A stretch of 7,114 bases of DNA from a virus (taxonomy: Duplodnaviria; Heunggongvirae; Uroviricota; Caudoviricetes): the IMG/VR virus record IMGVR_UViG_2698536533_000001. One strand, given 5' to 3'. The stretch's first letter is position 1. Each line of letters opens with the position of its first letter. The notes beneath the pieces were generated by a model. It saw nothing but the letters and a program-made list of their open reading frames with translations. It did no database searches and had not been told where the DNA came from. This document shows positions 1-7,114 of the stretch, piece after piece. Both the position numbers and the translations under genes were made by a program.

Positions 1-1
1 G

Positions 2-415
2 CAGCGCGACAAAAACGCAAGAGAACTGAAGCTGGCGAACGCAACCATTACTGACATGCAGCAGCGCCAGCGTGATGCTGATGCACTCGATGCTAAATAC
101 ACGAAGGAGTTAGCTGATGCGAAAGCTGAAAATGATGCTCTTCGGCGCAAGCTTGATAATGGTGGTCGGGTGCTCGTCAAAGGAAAATGCCCTGTGCCAT
201 CCTCAGCCGAAACCTCCAGCGCCTCCGGCATGGGCAATGATGCCACCGTCNNNNNNNNNNNNNNNNNNNNNNNNNNNNNNNNNNNNNNNNNNNNNNNNNN
301 NNNNNNNNNNNNNNNNNNNNNNNNNNNNNNNNNNNNNNNNNNNNNNNNNNNNNNNNNNNNNNNNNNNNNNNNNNNNNNNNNNNNNNNNNNNNAACATAAA
401 GTGCTGACCAGCTAG
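2..415 (+). CDS. Rz: Rz-like i-spanin (inner-membrane spanin subunit), 5'-partial; interrupted by the N-run, true stop probably hidden inside 251-392
   Basis: Frame 2 translation from the window edge ([48 protein letters not shown]...) closely matches my recollection of phage lambda Rz. The ORF runs off the 5' end of the window. The end at 415 is the ORF-track maximum; a lambda-length Rz would stop near 355-360, inside the N-run. Confidence 0.8.
117..300 (+). CDS. Rz1: Rz1-like o-spanin (outer-membrane lipoprotein), embedded in the +1 frame of Rz; 3' end approximate (inside N-run)
   Basis: ATG at 117 is preceded by AAGGAG (102-107, 9-nt spacer). Product [44 protein letters not shown] has a signal peptide with lipobox (VVGC) followed by a proline-rich stretch, the classic Rz1 architecture nested out of frame inside Rz. 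End is estimated from the ~60-aa lambda Rz1 length. Confidence 0.75.
251..392. other. Run of 142 N (assembly gap or masked sequence)
   Basis: Directly visible in the sequence. It hides the 3' ends of Rz, Rz1 and the convergent minus-strand gene, so ORF-track ends across it (e.g. 177 for the minus ORF) are artefacts of N being translated as X. Confidence 0.99.
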
Positions 416-866
416 CAGCTGAAATCAGACTCACTGTATACACTTTCACTGGATGAAGTTGCAACATTCCTGCCACCAAAGGAGCAATATAACGCAGCAC
501 GGCGATAAAGCGCGAAGTGAAAAGTATTGACACAGAGTTATTTTGCAACTGAAGGCGAACCCGTTCTATTGTATTGGAACGGCTTGATATTATACATGCA
601 AGTTGAGGGATATGCCCAATTATTATACCAAGATGGTAATTAACGATAGTACCGCACCATGCGCCACTCATGACCGTGATTCCAGCTTCCCATGGTGAAA
701 GAGTCGTCTTGCTGACTGTAATTACAGTGGCCATCATAATTGATGCTGGTGGCAATATCGCCGAAATGAGTAAAGTGGATTTTGTGAACGCTATTATAAA
801 AAGAAGCCCCCATAGGCGATATGGATGAAGTACAAAATAGTTCATCAAAGCATTTATCCACTCCAT
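393..866 (-). CDS. YqaA/DedA (SNARE-associated)-like small inner-membrane protein; phage moron; 3' end lies in the N-run
   Basis: Minus-strand ORF with ATG at 866-864 (TTG alternative at 869-867) preceded by AGGAAAG RBS. Product MMEWINALMNYFVLHPYRLWGLLFIIAFTKSTLLISAILPPASIMMATVITVSKTTLSPWEAGITVMSGAWCGTIVNYHLGIIIG...LRYIAPLVAGMLQLHP... is strongly hydrophobic with several predicted TM segments. Motif spacing (AFxxSTLL, S-PW, GxxxGxxxNxxLG, PLVAG) resembles my recollection of E. coli YqaA. The region is about 38-40% GC versus roughly 50-60% in the late genes. Confidence 0.5.
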
Positions 867-919
867 CAATGTCTTTCCTTCTGTGAATTTTTCTTTGCTA
901 TTTAACCGTGATACGACTT

Positions 920-949
920 AATTTAGGCTTAAACACCTTACATTTACAA
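920..949 (-). promoter_or_regulatory. Candidate sigma70-type promoter for the minus-strand membrane-protein gene
   Basis: On the minus strand: TTGTAA (plus 944-949), 18-nt spacer, TAAATT (plus 920-925), about 50 nt upstream of the start at 866. Weak match to consensus; sequence inspection only. Confidence 0.2.
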
Positions 950-1063
950 GGTACTCCTGTGGGGGGCCCTGCCACGGAGCGTCGCAGGAGTGAGTGATGA
1001 GGAAGAATTAAAGCAACCTATTGTGACAGGCAGCGATAACAGTAAATCACAGGAAGCATAATC

Positions 1064-1828
1064 ATGGCAAAACCGGACTGGGAGGCCATCGAATCGGCAT
1101 ACCGGGCCGGAGTCCTTAGCCTCCGTGATATAGGCGAGAAATACGGCGTTACAGAAGGGGCTATCAGGAAGAGGGCCAAAAAGCTTGGTTGGGCACGCAG
1201 TGGCGGTACGCAGGTTTGCAAAAATGGTACGCAAAAAAGGAAAGTGCGTACCAGCAGAAAGCCTGCCATTACTGGCCTTACACAAAAAAGTACGCAACTA
1301 AAAACAGAATCTACACCGGATACGAAACCGATACGCGGAATGCGTACCGATCCCCCGACTAACCCATTCCAACCCGGTAACCAGCAGGCATTAAAACACG
1401 GTGGTTATGCCCGTCGCCTTCTGCTCAAAGATGAGGTGATAGAGGACGCTAAAGCGTTGACGCTCGAGGACGAATTATTTCGCCTTCGTGCTAACAACCT
1501 TGTCGCTGCAGAGAATATTGGTCGGTGGTTGGTGTCGCTGGAAGATGCTAATGGGGACCAGGAAAGGAAGATGCTGATTGAAAATATCAGCGCCGCCGAG
1601 AAAGCAATGATGCGCAATACAGTTCGTATTGAGTCCATCGTTGGCACGCTTGCGACGGTAGGAAAAATATTTGCTGATACAGCCTACCGCAAGGCCGCCA
1701 CTGATAAGGTGTCTCTGGAGGCTGATCGTCTTCGCCGTGATGCAGGTATTGATGATGGCAATGGAGAGCGTGACCTCAATGACTTCTACTCTGACATCCA
1801 AACCGACGCTGAATCCGGCTTTACGTAG
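1064..1828 (+). CDS. Terminase small subunit (N-terminal HTH DNA-binding domain)
   Basis: ATG at 1064 with AGGAAG RBS (1049-1054). N-terminus AIESAYRAGVLSLRDIGEKYGVTEGAIRKRAKKLGW is HTH-like. A basic low-complexity linker and a NPFQPGNQQALKHGGYA motif are typical of phage small terminases as I recall them. It sits immediately upstream of the large terminase. Stop is TAG at 1826-1828. Confidence 0.85.
   Translation: MAKPDWEAIESAYRAGVLSLRDIGEKYGVTEGAIRKRAKKLGWARSGGTQVCKNGTQKRKVRTSRKPAITGLTQKSTQLKTESTPDTKPIRGMRTDPPTNPFQPGNQQALKHGGYARRLLLKDEVIEDAKALTLEDELFRLRANNLVAAENIGRWLVSLEDANGDQERKMLIENISAAEKAMMRNTVRIESIVGTLATVGKIFADTAYRKAATDKVSLEADRLRRDAGIDDGNGERDLNDFYSDIQTDAESGFT
1205..1348. repeat. Cluster of 5 GTACGC-core motifs (3 direct GGTACGCA-like, 2 inverted TGCGTACC) inside terS; candidate pac or TerS recognition site
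   Basis: GGTACGCA at 1205-1212 and 1226-1233; GTACGCA at 1290-1296; TGCGTACC at 1245-1252 and 1341-1348. A 6-mer in either orientation is expected about 0.07 times in 144 bp; the rest of the window carries only about 3 copies (near 2646, 3908, 5098), which is roughly background. Confidence 0.35.
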
Positions 1829-3182
1829 TTTCTGGACTATGCGGGCACGTAACAAAGTGCTTTATGGTGGTCGGTCATCGTCAAAATCATGGGATGCCGC
1901 TGGCATTGCCATATTTCTGTCGAATAAATACACCCTGCGTTTTTGTTGTGCCCGTCAGATCCAGAATAAAATCGAAGAGTCGGTGTATACCCTGCTCAAA
2001 ATTCAGATAGACAGGTTTGGTCTGCGGCACCGTTTCCGTATTCTGAACAACAAAATCATTAACCGGGTTACTGGCTCGGAATTTGTTTTTTATGGATTAT
2101 GGCGCAACATCGAAGAAATTAAGTCACTGGAGGGGATCGATGTGTTGTGGCTGGAAGAAGCCCACGCACTGACGGAATACCAGTGGAAAATTCTGGAGCC
2201 AACGATCCGTAAAGAGGGTTCGGAATGCTGGTTCATATTCAACCCCGGACTTGTTACTGATTTCGTCTGGCGCAACTTCGTTGTTGATCCGCCCGAAGGC
2301 ACTCTCATCCGCAAAATTAACTATGACGAAAATCCGTTTCTGTCTGACACCATGCTTAAGGTTATCGACGCGGCGCGACGCCGTGATCCGGATGGTTTTA
2401 AACATGTGTATGAGGGCGTTCCGGAGTCTGATGATGATGCGGCAATCATCAAACTGTCTTGGATAGAAGCCGCAGTGGATGCGCACAAAACGTTAAATTT
2501 CGAACCCAGTGGAAGAAAGCGTATTGGCTTTGACGTGGCTGACAGTGGTACAGATAAGTGCGCTAACGTTTACCGTCACGGATCCGTTGTTTTCTGGGCC
2601 GACGAATGGAAGGCCAAAGAAGATGAATTACTGAAGAGCTGCCAGCGTACTTATCAGGCGGCGCTGGAGCGTGAAGCAGATATTGTTTACGACTCTATCG
2701 GTGTTGGTGCGTCTGCCGGTGCTAAATTCTCTGAAATTAACGCTGACCGGAAGAGCGAGAACGCATACGCGCGACGTGTGAATTACCAGAGGTTTAACGC
2801 CGGTGCTGGTGTGCATGAGCCAGATGACGAGTACAACGGCATCCCCAACAAAGACTTTTTCGCAAATCTTAAGGCTCAGGCATGGTGGCTGGTGGCTGAC
2901 CGTTTCAGAAATACGTTTAACGCCATTAACAACGGAGAACAGTATCCTGTGGATGAGCTGATCAGCATAGATTCTCGTTGTCCGTTGCTTGAAAAGCTGA
3001 AACTGGAACTGACAACACCTCATCGTGATTTCGACCGTAACGGACGTGTGATGGTCGAAAGTAAAAAAGACCTCGCAAAACGCGAGATACCGTCACCAAA
3101 CGTTGCTGATGCATTCATTATGGCCTTCGCGCCAATCGATACATCGCTGGATATCTGGGAACAGCTGGGGAGACAGGCCTGA
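1779..3182 (+). CDS. Terminase large subunit (PBSX/Terminase_6-like ATPase-nuclease); start uncertain
   Basis: Walker A-like KVLYGGRSSSKSWD preceded by LNPALRSFW, typical of PBSX-family large terminases. ORF-track start 1671 overlaps terS by 158 nt; ATG 1779 (GGAGAG RBS about 10 nt upstream, 50-nt overlap) keeps the conserved LNPAL segment. ATG 1839 is also possible but would drop that motif. Stop TGA 3180-3182 overlaps the next ATG (ATGA). Confidence 0.85.
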   Translation: MTSTLTSKPTLNPALRSFWTMRARNKVLYGGRSSSKSWDAAGIAIFLSNKYTLRFCCARQIQNKIEESVYTLLKIQIDRFGLRHRFRILNNKIINRVTGSEFVFYGLWRNIEEIKSLEGIDVLWLEEAHALTEYQWKILEPTIRKEGSECWFIFNPGLVTDFVWRNFVVDPPEGTLIRKINYDENPFLSDTMLKVIDAARRRDPDGFKHVYEGVPESDDDAAIIKLSWIEAAVDAHKTLNFEPSGRKRIGFDVADSGTDKCANVYRHGSVVFWADEWKAKEDELLKSCQRTYQAALEREADIVYDSIGVGASAGAKFSEINADRKSENAYARRVNYQRFNAGAGVHEPDDEYNGIPNKDFFANLKAQAWWLVADRFRNTFNAINNGEQYPVDELISIDSRCPLLEKLKLELTTPHRDFDRNGRVMVESKKDLAKREIPSPNVADAFIMAFAPIDTSLDIWEQLGRQA

Positions 3183-3565
3183 TGGCACGAAACAAACAAG
3201 CCCTGCGGCGAACTGTGCAGGCCACAGCTGATGGTTATGAGAATTTTATTGCCCGCGTAGGGATGCAGACACCTAACCAGCACTCAGCATCCACCTACCG
3301 GGCTAATTTCACCAGTCGTAACCGCATGCTGGTGGAATGGTCCTATCGTTCATCCTAGATCATCGGCGAAGCAGTCGATGCTATCCCGGATGATATGACC
3401 CGCAAAGGCATTCGCATCACTTCGGAAATTGATGCAAAAGATCGTGGCATTCTCGAATCACAACTGGATGAGTTGCAAATCTGGGATGCGCTGAATGACG
3501 TGCTGAAATGGTCGCGCCTCTACGGCGGCGCGGTGGGTTTCATCATGATTGAGGGGTAGGCACCA
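3182..3565 (+). pseudogene. Portal N-terminal region, same frame as the downstream portal ORF, interrupted by two in-frame amber codons (TAG 3356-3358 and 3557-3559)
   Basis: ATG 3182 overlaps the terL stop (ATGA) and has a GGGGAGA RBS. Hand translation: MARNKQALRRTVQATADGYENFIARVGMQTPNQHSASTYRANFTSRNRMLVEWSYRSS*IIGEAVDAIPDDMTRKGIRITSEIDAKDRGILESQLDELQIWDALNDVLKWSRLYGGAVGFIMIEG*APMTPL..., running in frame into the ATG at 3566. There is no frameshift, only the two TAG codons. Confidence 0.6.
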
Positions 3566-4648
3566 ATGACCCCGCTGCGACCCGAAACCATCGGTAAGGG
3601 CAAGTTTAAGGGGATTCTCCCGCTCGACCGCTGGATGGTCGACCCGGCACTGACCCGCCGCATTAAAGATATGGGGCCGGACCTGGGTAAACCTGAGTTT
3701 TACGATGTGGTGACCACAGCAACGGGAATTCCTGCCTGGCGCATTCATCACAGTCGCCTGATTCGCTTTGATGGCGTCACGTTGCCATTTCAGCAGAAGA
3801 TGACCGAGAACGAATGGGGAATGTCGGTTGTAGAGCGTATCTGGGATCGTCTTACCGCGTTCGACAGCGCTACTGTCGGCGCGGCGCAGCTGGTCTACAA
3901 GGCGCATTTGCGTACCTACAGCGTGGAGAAGCTACGCGAGCTTATCGCACTTGGTGGTCCTGCGTATGAAGCGTTGCTGAAGAATATCGACCTGATTCGA
4001 CAGTTCCAGAGTAATGAAGGCATGACGCTCATGGACTCGCGGGATAAGTTTGAAACCCATCAGTACAGCTTCAGTGGTCTGGATGACATCCTTTCGCAGT
4101 TTGTAGAACAGATTAGTGGCGCTGTTGGTATCCCACTGGTGCGGTTGTTCGGACAGTCCCCGAAAGGATTTTCTACCGGTGATGCAGACCTTGCCAACTA
4201 TTACGATCGCATCAGTTCGTTGCAGGAGAGGCGTTTACGTCTTCCGGTGCGGCGGATACTGGACATCATGCATCGTTCGGAACTTGGCAAGCCGCTGCCG
4301 GACGATTTCACGTTTGAGTTTAACCCGCTCTGGCAAATGTCTGATGTCGATCGCTCAACGGTGGCGTTAAACACCACCAACGCAATCAGTACGGCGCTGG
4401 GTGATGGTCTGATGACACTGAAAGCCGCTATGACTGATTTGCGAGAAAATTCTGACGTAACCGGCATCGGGGCATCCATTACCGACGAGGACATCGAGAA
4501 TGCCGAAGATGAAGCGCCGCCCGGCATCGGCGAACCTGATGACGAACCGCAGGAGCCGTCAGGCGGAAATCCGGTATCGAACCAGCCTACGCAGGATAGC
4601 GAGGGCGGTCGGAGACATCGTAAATGGTCGCTACGATGGTTCAAATGA
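3566..4648 (+). CDS. Phage portal protein (longest uninterrupted segment; the full frame begins at 3182)
   Basis: 360-aa ORF directly after terL in the canonical portal position, with an acidic C-terminal tail (EDEAPPGIGEPDDEPQEP...). GAGGGG RBS lies 9 nt upstream of ATG 3566. Stop TGA 4646-4648. Confidence 0.8.
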   Translation: MTPLRPETIGKGKFKGILPLDRWMVDPALTRRIKDMGPDLGKPEFYDVVTTATGIPAWRIHHSRLIRFDGVTLPFQQKMTENEWGMSVVERIWDRLTAFDSATVGAAQLVYKAHLRTYSVEKLRELIALGGPAYEALLKNIDLIRQFQSNEGMTLMDSRDKFETHQYSFSGLDDILSQFVEQISGAVGIPLVRLFGQSPKGFSTGDADLANYYDRISSLQERRLRLPVRRILDIMHRSELGKPLPDDFTFEFNPLWQMSDVDRSTVALNTTNAISTALGDGLMTLKAAMTDLRENSDVTGIGASITDEDIENAEDEAPPGIGEPDDEPQEPSGGNPVSNQPTQDSEGGRRHRKWSLRWFK

Positions 4649-7016: not shown

Positions 7017-7114
7017 GGAACAGACGAATGAGGTGATGCTGCCAACTTACTGATTTAGTGTATGATGGTGTTTTTGAGGTGCTCCAGTGGCTTCTGTTTC
7101 TATCAGCTGTCCCT

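Follow-up and report, generated by a model that had tools for sequence, protein, structure and literature searches.

The window analysed here is a stretch of 7,114 nucleotides (nt) from a virus of the Caudoviricetes (IMG/VR record IMGVR_UViG_2698536533_000001), which carries a single gene of the DedA family on the minus strand, between the lysis genes Rz/Rz1 and terS. Comparison with other genomes revealed that this gene lies within a mobile cassette of about 595 bp occupying the bor position of a lambdoid prophage, and that its product belongs to a minimal DedA subfamily in which a lysine invariably replaces a family glutamate. The explanation that best accounts for the findings as a whole, and to which we give an even chance, is a lysogenic-conversion moron whose minimal DedA inner-membrane protein would handle lipid phosphate and be expressed from a regulated promoter of its own. 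DedA proteins have only recently been recognised as translocases of undecaprenyl phosphate and phospholipids, and several pathogens depend on them for resistance to polymyxin.

The visible part of the cassette covers positions 393..941 (minus strand); the full element, at about 347-941, extends from 10 nt past the stop codon of the gene to 75 nt upstream of its ATG. It shared 82.5% nucleotide identity with a prophage of Citrobacter youngae and 77% with a chromosomal locus of C. meridianamericanus, and in both comparisons the nucleotide homology ended at the cassette borders. The C. youngae prophage encodes a GH19 endolysin, a holin_8 protein, a lambda-type GpA terminase and a portal_2 protein; its lysis genes are unlike those of the window, and the DedA gene is again found on the opposite strand between lysis and packaging. 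In E. coli RMDEC465, the same Rz–DedA segment adjoins a terminase module of still another kind. The initial annotation, made from the sequence of the window alone, had proposed horizontal acquisition, which is now shown directly by the presence of the ~595-bp cassette both in Citrobacter chromosomes and in another lambdoid prophage. The DedA protein belongs to a narrow subfamily of the Enterobacterales, and the cassette was probably captured from a chromosome of the Citrobacter/Kosakonia type.

Morons at the bor position are textbook examples of phage cargo. In lambda and in the DLP12 prophage of E. coli K-12, bor and borD share one slot, which follows Rz/Rz1 directly, precedes the packaging genes and has its gene on the opposite strand; the DLP12 order is essD-rrrD-rzpD/rzoD, followed by borD on the opposite strand. 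The DedA gene occupies this same slot and the window Rz is a relative of rzpD, so that the bor position, also put forward in the initial annotation, was confirmed. The cargo itself differs: Bor is a small lipoprotein of the outer membrane, whereas the protein encoded here is polytopic, belongs to the inner membrane and has no sequence relationship to Bor. Relatives of the window Rz were found in about 5,100 of 5,426 E. coli genomes, and in one example with a related Rz (locus L106) homology was lost about 44 nt past the Rz stop codon, where other sequence begins. The moron label is justified by position, by composition and by the occurrence of the gene on several phage backbones. A megablast search with the cassette against 50,697 phage records (INPHARED) gave no match, and tblastn against the same records returned only matches of at most 30% identity, mostly to prophage-derived records; with no close relative among the deposited phage records, no reference phage is available. 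In a further locus (L102), about 1.4 kb of extra sequence lies between Rz and an intact DedA frame.

The minus-strand open reading frame (ORF) between Rz/Rz1 and terS opens with TTG at 869 or ATG at 866 and runs into a run of N. RefSeq/PGAP places the start at TTG 869, which gives a 170-aa 'DedA family protein' (WP_011069285.1); ATG 866, which gives a 169-aa product, is the likely start because every orthologue begins with MEW or MAW. The visible coding sequence (CDS) thus covers 393..866 on the minus strand, and a Shine-Dalgarno sequence, AAGGAAAG, is located at 873..880 on the same strand, 6 nt before ATG 866. The GC content was 41.9% for the DedA CDS and 41.0% for the cassette, compared with 52.7% for Rz, 51.4% for terS and 52.2% for the rest of the window; at third codon positions the values were 39% for the CDS versus 51%. 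The lone opposite-strand gene at the Rz/Rz1–terS junction, as first described, is borne out by the ORF and by Pfam calls on both flanks. The GC content of 38-40% originally given was slightly low, and the gene is indeed richer in AT than its flanks (51-53% GC). Of the strong ribosome-binding site (RBS) and candidate promoter proposed for the gene, the former was recovered at 873-880, and a sigma-70 consensus promoter was not found in the scan.

The 3' end of the gene lies beneath an N-mask of 142 nt at 251..392. Two IMG/VR contigs (L092 and L099) are 100% identical to the window on either side of the mask, and in these and in 18 further copies the masked interval measures 241 nt instead of 142, comprising the final 117 nt of Rz, then 88 nt of spacer and the final 36 nt of the DedA gene. 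Rz accordingly ends 117 nt to the right of position 250, and the DedA stop codon lies 36 nt to the left of 393 (11 codons plus the stop). Because of these identical loci, the DedA ORF can be taken as complete and undisrupted, its stop having been recovered from L092, L099 and the 18 copies. Two candidate complications, namely an Rz extending across the DedA region and a DedA ORF truncated beneath the mask, were ruled out by the same loci. The mask apparently fails to preserve length, a 99-nt deletion in this particular copy being the less likely alternative. With 99 nt apparently missing from the mask, positions on its two sides have an offset of 99 nt compared with real genomes.

The 159 visible amino acids matched the Pfam profile VTT_dom (PF09335) with 51.2 bits (gathering cut-off 33.9, E=2.2e-13, profile positions 3-118 of 123). 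AlphaFold2 (AF2) modelling from a 56-sequence alignment yielded a model with a mean predicted local distance difference test score (pLDDT) of 88.9 and a predicted template modelling score (pTM) of 0.83, which is a prediction only; an earlier model built from 16 sequences (pLDDT 57) was discarded. The model comprises an N-terminal helix, a first transmembrane (TM) helix at residues 16-31, a helix-break-helix element at 33-53, TM2 at 59-85, two short helices at 88-110, a second helix-break-helix element at 112-135, and TM3 at 140-165. The predicted layout is therefore TM1, re-entrant hairpin 1, TM2, two cytoplasmic helices, re-entrant hairpin 2 and TM3, and the hydropathy profile agrees with the three TM helices and two hairpins. 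The core of E. coli YqjA also consists of three TM helices and two hairpins (bioRxiv 10.64898/2026.09.20.752871). The polytopic DedA/VTT membrane protein expected from the initial annotation is supported by both the profile match and the modelled helices. A Foldseek search against the PDB gave noise only, the PDB holding no solved DedA structure for comparison.

Residues were compared across 175 aligned domains, made up of the subfamily and its 150 best relatives from an HMMER search of 1.84 billion representatives. An arginine pair, R120/R126, aligns with R130/R136 of YqjA and R112/R118 of UptA; it is invariant in the subfamily and present in 154 of the 175 domains. S43 corresponds to S52 of YqjA, the functionally important serine after the tip of hairpin 1, W154 is the conserved tryptophan, and the proline and glycine positions are kept. 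The two carboxylates of YqjA are replaced, E39 (a glutamate that is near-universal in the family) by K30 and D51 by A42, and both replacements are invariant in the subfamily. Lysine in the E39 column was found in 37 of the 175 domains, all 37 belonging to the subfamily; the other domains have glutamate there, except for one with aspartate, one with glutamine and eight that are partial and lack this column. Outside YqjA-type proteins, the D51 column varies. The subfamily has no invariant acidic residue at any position and is marked by the signature K-S-T...S...P-P-A-S and F-T-S-R-F-I/L-A-V-L-R. Judged from the alignment, the subfamily thus keeps the putative head-group-binding arginines and lacks a carboxylate partner for them.

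These positions have been assigned roles in two characterised relatives. In UptA of Bacillus subtilis, R112, R118 and E32 mediate binding of undecaprenyl phosphate (C55-P), with E32 hydrogen-bonded to R118 (PMC11474028). In YqjA, E39, D51, R130 and R136 are located at the predicted lipid head-group site; the D51A variant is reported to be non-functional, and E39A/D51A is treated as expected to be so (bioRxiv 10.64898/2026.09.20.752871). The window protein shares with UptA and the YghB-type C55-P flippases the family and the arginine pair important for C55-P binding, whereas the equivalent of UptA E32 is a lysine.

With YqjA, YghB and DedA of E. coli, the window protein has in common the VTT_dom domain, the predicted three-TM/two-hairpin core, the arginine pair, the serine (S52 = S43), the proline and glycine positions and the tryptophan. 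Identity to YqjA, YghB, DedA, YohD and YqaA is nevertheless only 17-23% in the alignment, and compared with YqjA the protein lacks an N-terminal insert of about 11 aa and a C-terminal helix of about 45 aa. YqjA, YghB and DedA are moreover core genes, whereas the window protein is phage-borne. The NCBIfam equivalog models scored 30.7 bits against a cut-off of 236 (NF008102), and 19.5 against 250 and 16 against 300 for the UptA models NF052604 and NF052605. Orthology to any named E. coli DedA paralogue was ruled out on the basis of these identities and scores. This applies equally to the likeness to YqaA suggested by the initial annotation. YqaA (142 aa) is also short and also lacks the C-terminal helix, but its identity is 21%, its hairpin-1 motif is LLPGNSE and it lacks the first arginine. 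It was absent from the matches of the subfamily-profile search, and no YqaA-type model was reported in the NCBIfam scan of the DedA protein.

Could the protein be an ordinary proton-coupled DedA transporter, redundant with YqjA and YghB and supplying an extra dose of the host's membrane homeostasis (tolerance of alkaline pH, temperature and drugs)? The common Pfam domain, arginine pair, serine after the tip of hairpin 1 and tryptophan would all fit such a role. We nevertheless consider it unlikely: K30 and A42 stand in place of E39 and D51, in a family where YqjA D51A is reported to be non-functional; among the 175 aligned domains the lysine is confined to the subfamily, in which no acidic residue is invariant; and both the identity to the E. 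coli paralogues and the NF008102 score are low. The nearest relatives outside the subfamily among the 1.84 billion representatives are the N-terminal DedA domains of fusion proteins of 450-700 aa, in which DedA/VTT is combined with a PAP2 lipid-phosphate phosphatase domain, an LssY_C domain or both (P0041, P0042, P0044 and P0065). This DedA–PAP2 fusion links the clade to the chemistry of lipid phosphates or pyrophosphates and would suit a role in handling the carrier lipid.

Among 5.8 billion clusters, a word-indexed search returned 19 homologues, all 19 of which contain PF09335. A scan of 185,579 species genomes yielded 70 loci, with identities of 99% in Shigella/E. coli, 78% in C. youngae, 57-74% in Citrobacter and Kosakonia, and 46-53% in about 28 Enterobacter-type species; further hosts were Huaxiibacter, Lelliottia, Arsenophonus, Morganella and Proteus myxofaciens (34-43%). 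Phage markers surround the DedA gene solely in E. coli/Shigella and in C. youngae. Chromosomal orthologues are present in about 60 species, and their GC content tracks that of the host genome. Their neighbourhoods on the chromosome are conserved: the Enterobacter gene is divergent from mgtE and has an SDR gene behind it, and that of Kosakonia is flanked by genes for an EF-G-like protein and an L,D-transpeptidase. One additional IMG/VR contig (L105) carries a DedA gene whose product is 72% identical. This gene stands about 900 bp away from a Mu-like transposable prophage, past the repressor end, and behind it come a gene of the SRAP type and a pair of large, uncharacterised ones, of which one encodes a macro-like N-terminus. 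This contig was discounted as a phage context, since the gene probably belongs to the host flank or to an island beside the Mu-like prophage end.

The distribution bears on the proposal, raised in the initial annotation, that the protein serves superinfection exclusion. Other prophage-encoded inner-membrane morons block the DNA entry of competing phages, and a DedA fold repurposed for the same task would agree with the prophage location, the orientation opposite to the late genes, plausible expression in the lysogen and the retention of the gene as the prophage decays; the loss of the family glutamate could also point to a role other than transport. However, the lysine-for-glutamate exchange and an identical architecture are found in chromosomal orthologues of host-like GC content in Enterobacter, Kosakonia, Morganella and Arsenophonus, which indicates that this protein type evolved for a cellular rather than an anti-phage task. 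No PADLOC defence model matched at E<=1, the sole PHROG match was to an uncharacterised family (E=4e-7), and a structure search of BFVD found no phage protein with this fold and only weak matches to giant-virus 'SNARE-associated' proteins. Exclusion or blocking of injection therefore has no specific support, the gene being an ordinary chromosomal one in several genera, and we regard it as improbable.

Within this range of hosts, the gene is under purifying selection: dN/dS (the ratio of nonsynonymous to synonymous substitution rates) was 0.15-0.25 across all comparisons, 0.24 between the two phage-borne copies and 0.15-0.19 between phage-borne and chromosomal copies. The DedA frame was intact in all 21 E. 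coli/Shigella loci, and in most of these terL, terS, Rz or portal genes were truncated, interrupted by an insertion sequence (IS) or bore stop codons. The exact DedA protein was found on at least 1000 contigs, mostly of S. flexneri, and in six of 5,426 complete E. coli genomes. The carrier prophage is frequent in Shigella flexneri and seldom found in E. coli.

To characterize the upstream region, the 160 nt before the start codon were aligned for 27 orthologues. The alignment revealed a conserved block, GTT(G/T)A-N6-ATT(G/T)A, 12 nt, T(T/C)(A/T)AAT, about 30 nt before the RBS. It is common to the E. coli phage copy and to Citrobacter, Enterobacter, Huaxiibacter, Lelliottia and Entomohabitans, and the sequence around it cannot be aligned between genera. 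In the window, the conserved columns include a -10-like hexamer, TTAAAT (TCTAAT or TTAAAT in orthologues), at 900..905 on the minus strand, and a direct repeat at 917..935 on the same strand, 11-12 nt upstream of the hexamer and thus in the -35 position. A direct repeat with an 11-bp period in the -35 position is typical of activators of the OmpR/PhoB family. RNA folding downstream of the DedA stop codon gave nothing above shuffled controls. In E. coli VL7S7 (L019, 7522-8700), an IS911 element is inserted at the equivalent of window position 913/914, between the hexamer and the repeat, and the DedA frame is intact.

These observations also bear on whether the gene is a silent hitch-hiker, that is, a gene fragment carried along by recombination without function in the lysogen. 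The prophage that carries it is defective, the scans gave no good sigma-70 promoter or terminator, and in one strain the IS911 copy separates the repeat from the hexamer. Against this stand the dN/dS values both between phage-borne copies and towards chromosomal ones, the intact frame in 21 of 21 loci whose neighbouring genes are often interrupted, and the conservation of the upstream block and RBS, so that we give the hitch-hiker little credence.

Two members of the OmpR/PhoB family were considered as candidate regulators. The PhoP box was scored as (T/G)GTTTA-N5-(T/G)GTTTA; the window repeat, read from 935 to 919, gives TGTTTA-AGCCT-AAATTA with three mismatches, and the C. youngae phage copy has two. 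The consensus of the PmrA/BasR box is YTTAAK-N5-YTTAAK, which was checked only on two K-12 promoters, where eptA showed no mismatch and arnB one. Read in this way, the window repeat (TTTAAG-CCTAA-ATTAAG) has a single mismatch, and it is the single such site in the window, with 0.26 expected. PhoP promoters of architecture I have their box in direct orientation, 12 nt ahead of the -10 hexamer (PMC3335776). The upstream region of the DedA gene shares with promoters of architectures I and II (mgtA, phoP, yrbL and slyB; ybjX and virK) the direct repeat of 11-bp period, its orientation and the 12-nt spacing; it differs from them in the three mismatches, in one extra spacer base and in its better fit to the PmrA/BasR box.

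A perfect PhoP box was found about 100 nt upstream of the DedA gene in 22 of 28 Enterobacter-type species (for example L034 7897-7913, among Enterobacter loci L028-L054). It points towards the gene, and its half-sites are conserved while the spacers vary. In E. hormaechei, the one locus tested in this respect, the box was the sole perfect match in 16.5 kb, with 0.01 expected. This distal box falls outside the phage-carried segment. It suggests that the gene may be an undescribed member of the PhoP regulon in Enterobacter. Within the bor slot itself, borD of the K-12 DLP12 prophage (L109) has a perfect PhoP box, TGTTTAGGGTTTGTTTA, at 3947-3963 on the minus strand, 53-69 nt upstream of its start and the sole perfect match in the 7 kb examined; this parallels the response-regulator-type repeat upstream of the window DedA gene. 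On these sequence comparisons, control by a response regulator is a hypothesis with some support where the chromosomal orthologues are concerned; for the phage copy it is no more than a lead.

Based on these results, we propose that the moron protein would bind an anionic phosphate-headed lipid or move it across the inner membrane of the lysogen. The likeliest substrate would be the undecaprenyl-phosphate carrier, with a phospholipid as the alternative. The canonical Glu–Arg device for proton coupling would not be used. We consider it somewhat less than evenly likely that the protein binds or translocates such a lipid through its arginine pair without carboxylate-based proton coupling. Transcription would run antisense to the late operon from a promoter of its own, whose -35 region would be replaced by a site for a response regulator of the OmpR/PhoB type (PhoP- or PmrA/BasR-like). 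Such a site would therefore imply expression together with the regulon for envelope remodelling under low Mg2+ or antimicrobial peptides, and the protein may then support carrier-lipid-dependent modification or repair of the envelope. That a PhoP- or PmrA-type regulator switches the gene on within envelope remodelling is likewise put, tentatively, at a little under an even chance.

Several observations weigh against this proposal. As to the protein, the absence of both E39 and D51, together with the loss of function reported for YqjA D51A, means that a mechanism like that of YqjA or UptA is not simply transferable, and the NCBIfam scores to the UptA and DedA equivalogs lie far under their cut-offs. 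As to the promoter, the sigma-70 scan found none upstream of the DedA gene, nor a terminator, and the -10-like hexamer lacks the consensus A at position 2. The repeat deviates from the PhoP box at three positions, with a spacing that is 1 nt longer than in Citrobacter and Enterobacter, and its match to the PmrA-type box is only modestly unlikely by chance, at 0.26 expected sites per window. The Enterobacter PhoP box lies in an intergenic region shared with the divergent mgtE and could serve that gene. Finally, the phoPQ microarray of S. flexneri 301 and the PhoP-box tables held no recognisable DedA entry, the gene not being identifiable there without a locus tag.

A bolder version of the proposal would make the entire charge-reversed, carboxylate-free subfamily a PhoP/PmrA-controlled handler of C55-P or undecaprenyl pyrophosphate (C55-PP) that aids modification of lipid A and the envelope under antimicrobial-peptide or low-Mg2+ stress. 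Phages would have spread it as an envelope-stress conversion gene, for instance for polymyxin tolerance, now near-ubiquitous in Shigella flexneri; we think this doubtful. Also improbable is a modulator of host DedA proteins, which, as a lysine-bearing protomer with a short C-terminus, would form heterodimers with YqjA, YghB or DedA and alter or inhibit them, rewiring carrier-lipid and membrane homeostasis in the lysogen: YqjA and UptA do exist in monomer–dimer equilibria, with hairpins and acidic and arginine residues at the dimer interface (bioRxiv 10.64898/2026.09.20.752871; PMC11474028), and K30 is a charge reversal exactly there, but the idea is purely inferential, and chromosomal orthologues coexist with normal paralogues in many genera, which fits independent activity equally well.

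The RefSeq name 'DedA family protein' and the presence of morons at this position were already known. The searched literature held no description of a phage-borne DedA gene, of a minimal carboxylate-free subfamily with lysine for glutamate, or of its PhoP-type sites, and searches on prophage-borne DedA and on the Enterobacter 'DedA' colistin determinant returned no paper treating the subfamily. The new element is a distinct DedA subtype, lacking the glutamate thought central to the mechanism, that is carried by phages and kept intact in decaying prophages. If it is active as proposed, it offers a natural 'E39K/D51A' variant for probing the DedA mechanism and a case of an envelope-stress function spread by phages; otherwise it is an ordinary single-gene moron already annotated as a DedA family protein. 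The gene represents a modest addition to the known phage cargo genes.

The genes flanking the cassette belong to the lysis and packaging modules. On the left, the plus strand carries the 3' part of the i-spanin gene Rz (1..250), with an embedded ORF for the Rz1 lipoprotein starting at 117; both matched Pfam (Phage_lysis, E=2.5e-13; Rz1, E=3.7e-9) and continue under the mask. The window Rz is 99.6% identical to the 'lysis protein' of a related prophage locus (L001). The right-hand neighbour, a terS-like gene with an N-terminal helix-turn-helix motif (1064..1828, plus strand), is the first gene of the packaging module, and it is followed by a PBSX-type terL, a DUF1073 portal gene, a head-morphogenesis gene, a DUF2213 gene and a gene for a Gp24-like cement protein. 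To the right of the mask, six complete E. coli chromosomes match the window DNA at 99.3-99.9% identity, and RefSeq annotates the DedA family protein in them.

The window's own lambdoid prophage is defective. Its DUF1073 portal gene (3182-4648) is split into three ORFs (3182-3358, 3395-3559 and 3566-4648); an internal stop is found in L092, L093 and L099, which are identical to the window, and the gene is intact, with 488 aa, in strain VL40 (L016). The last 83 nt of the window (7032-7114) are 100% identical to an IS1 end (L001 8793-8875), which places an IS1 insertion just past the Gp24-like gene, at the expected start of the DUF2184 major capsid gene.

Two further features were noted outside the cassette. 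Just beyond its border and upstream of terS, window positions 952-992 contain a GC-rich inverted repeat with an 11-bp stem (ACTCCTGTG...CGCAGGAGT); neither strand has a T-run there, and the region that contains it (940-1064) folded no better than shuffled sequences. Related prophages carry four clustered tRNA genes, in the order Ile, Arg, Thr and either Gly or Val (L001 9707-10017 and L016 5098-5404); these lie upstream of the part covered by the window, with the Q-like antiterminator region on one side and the holin gene on the other.

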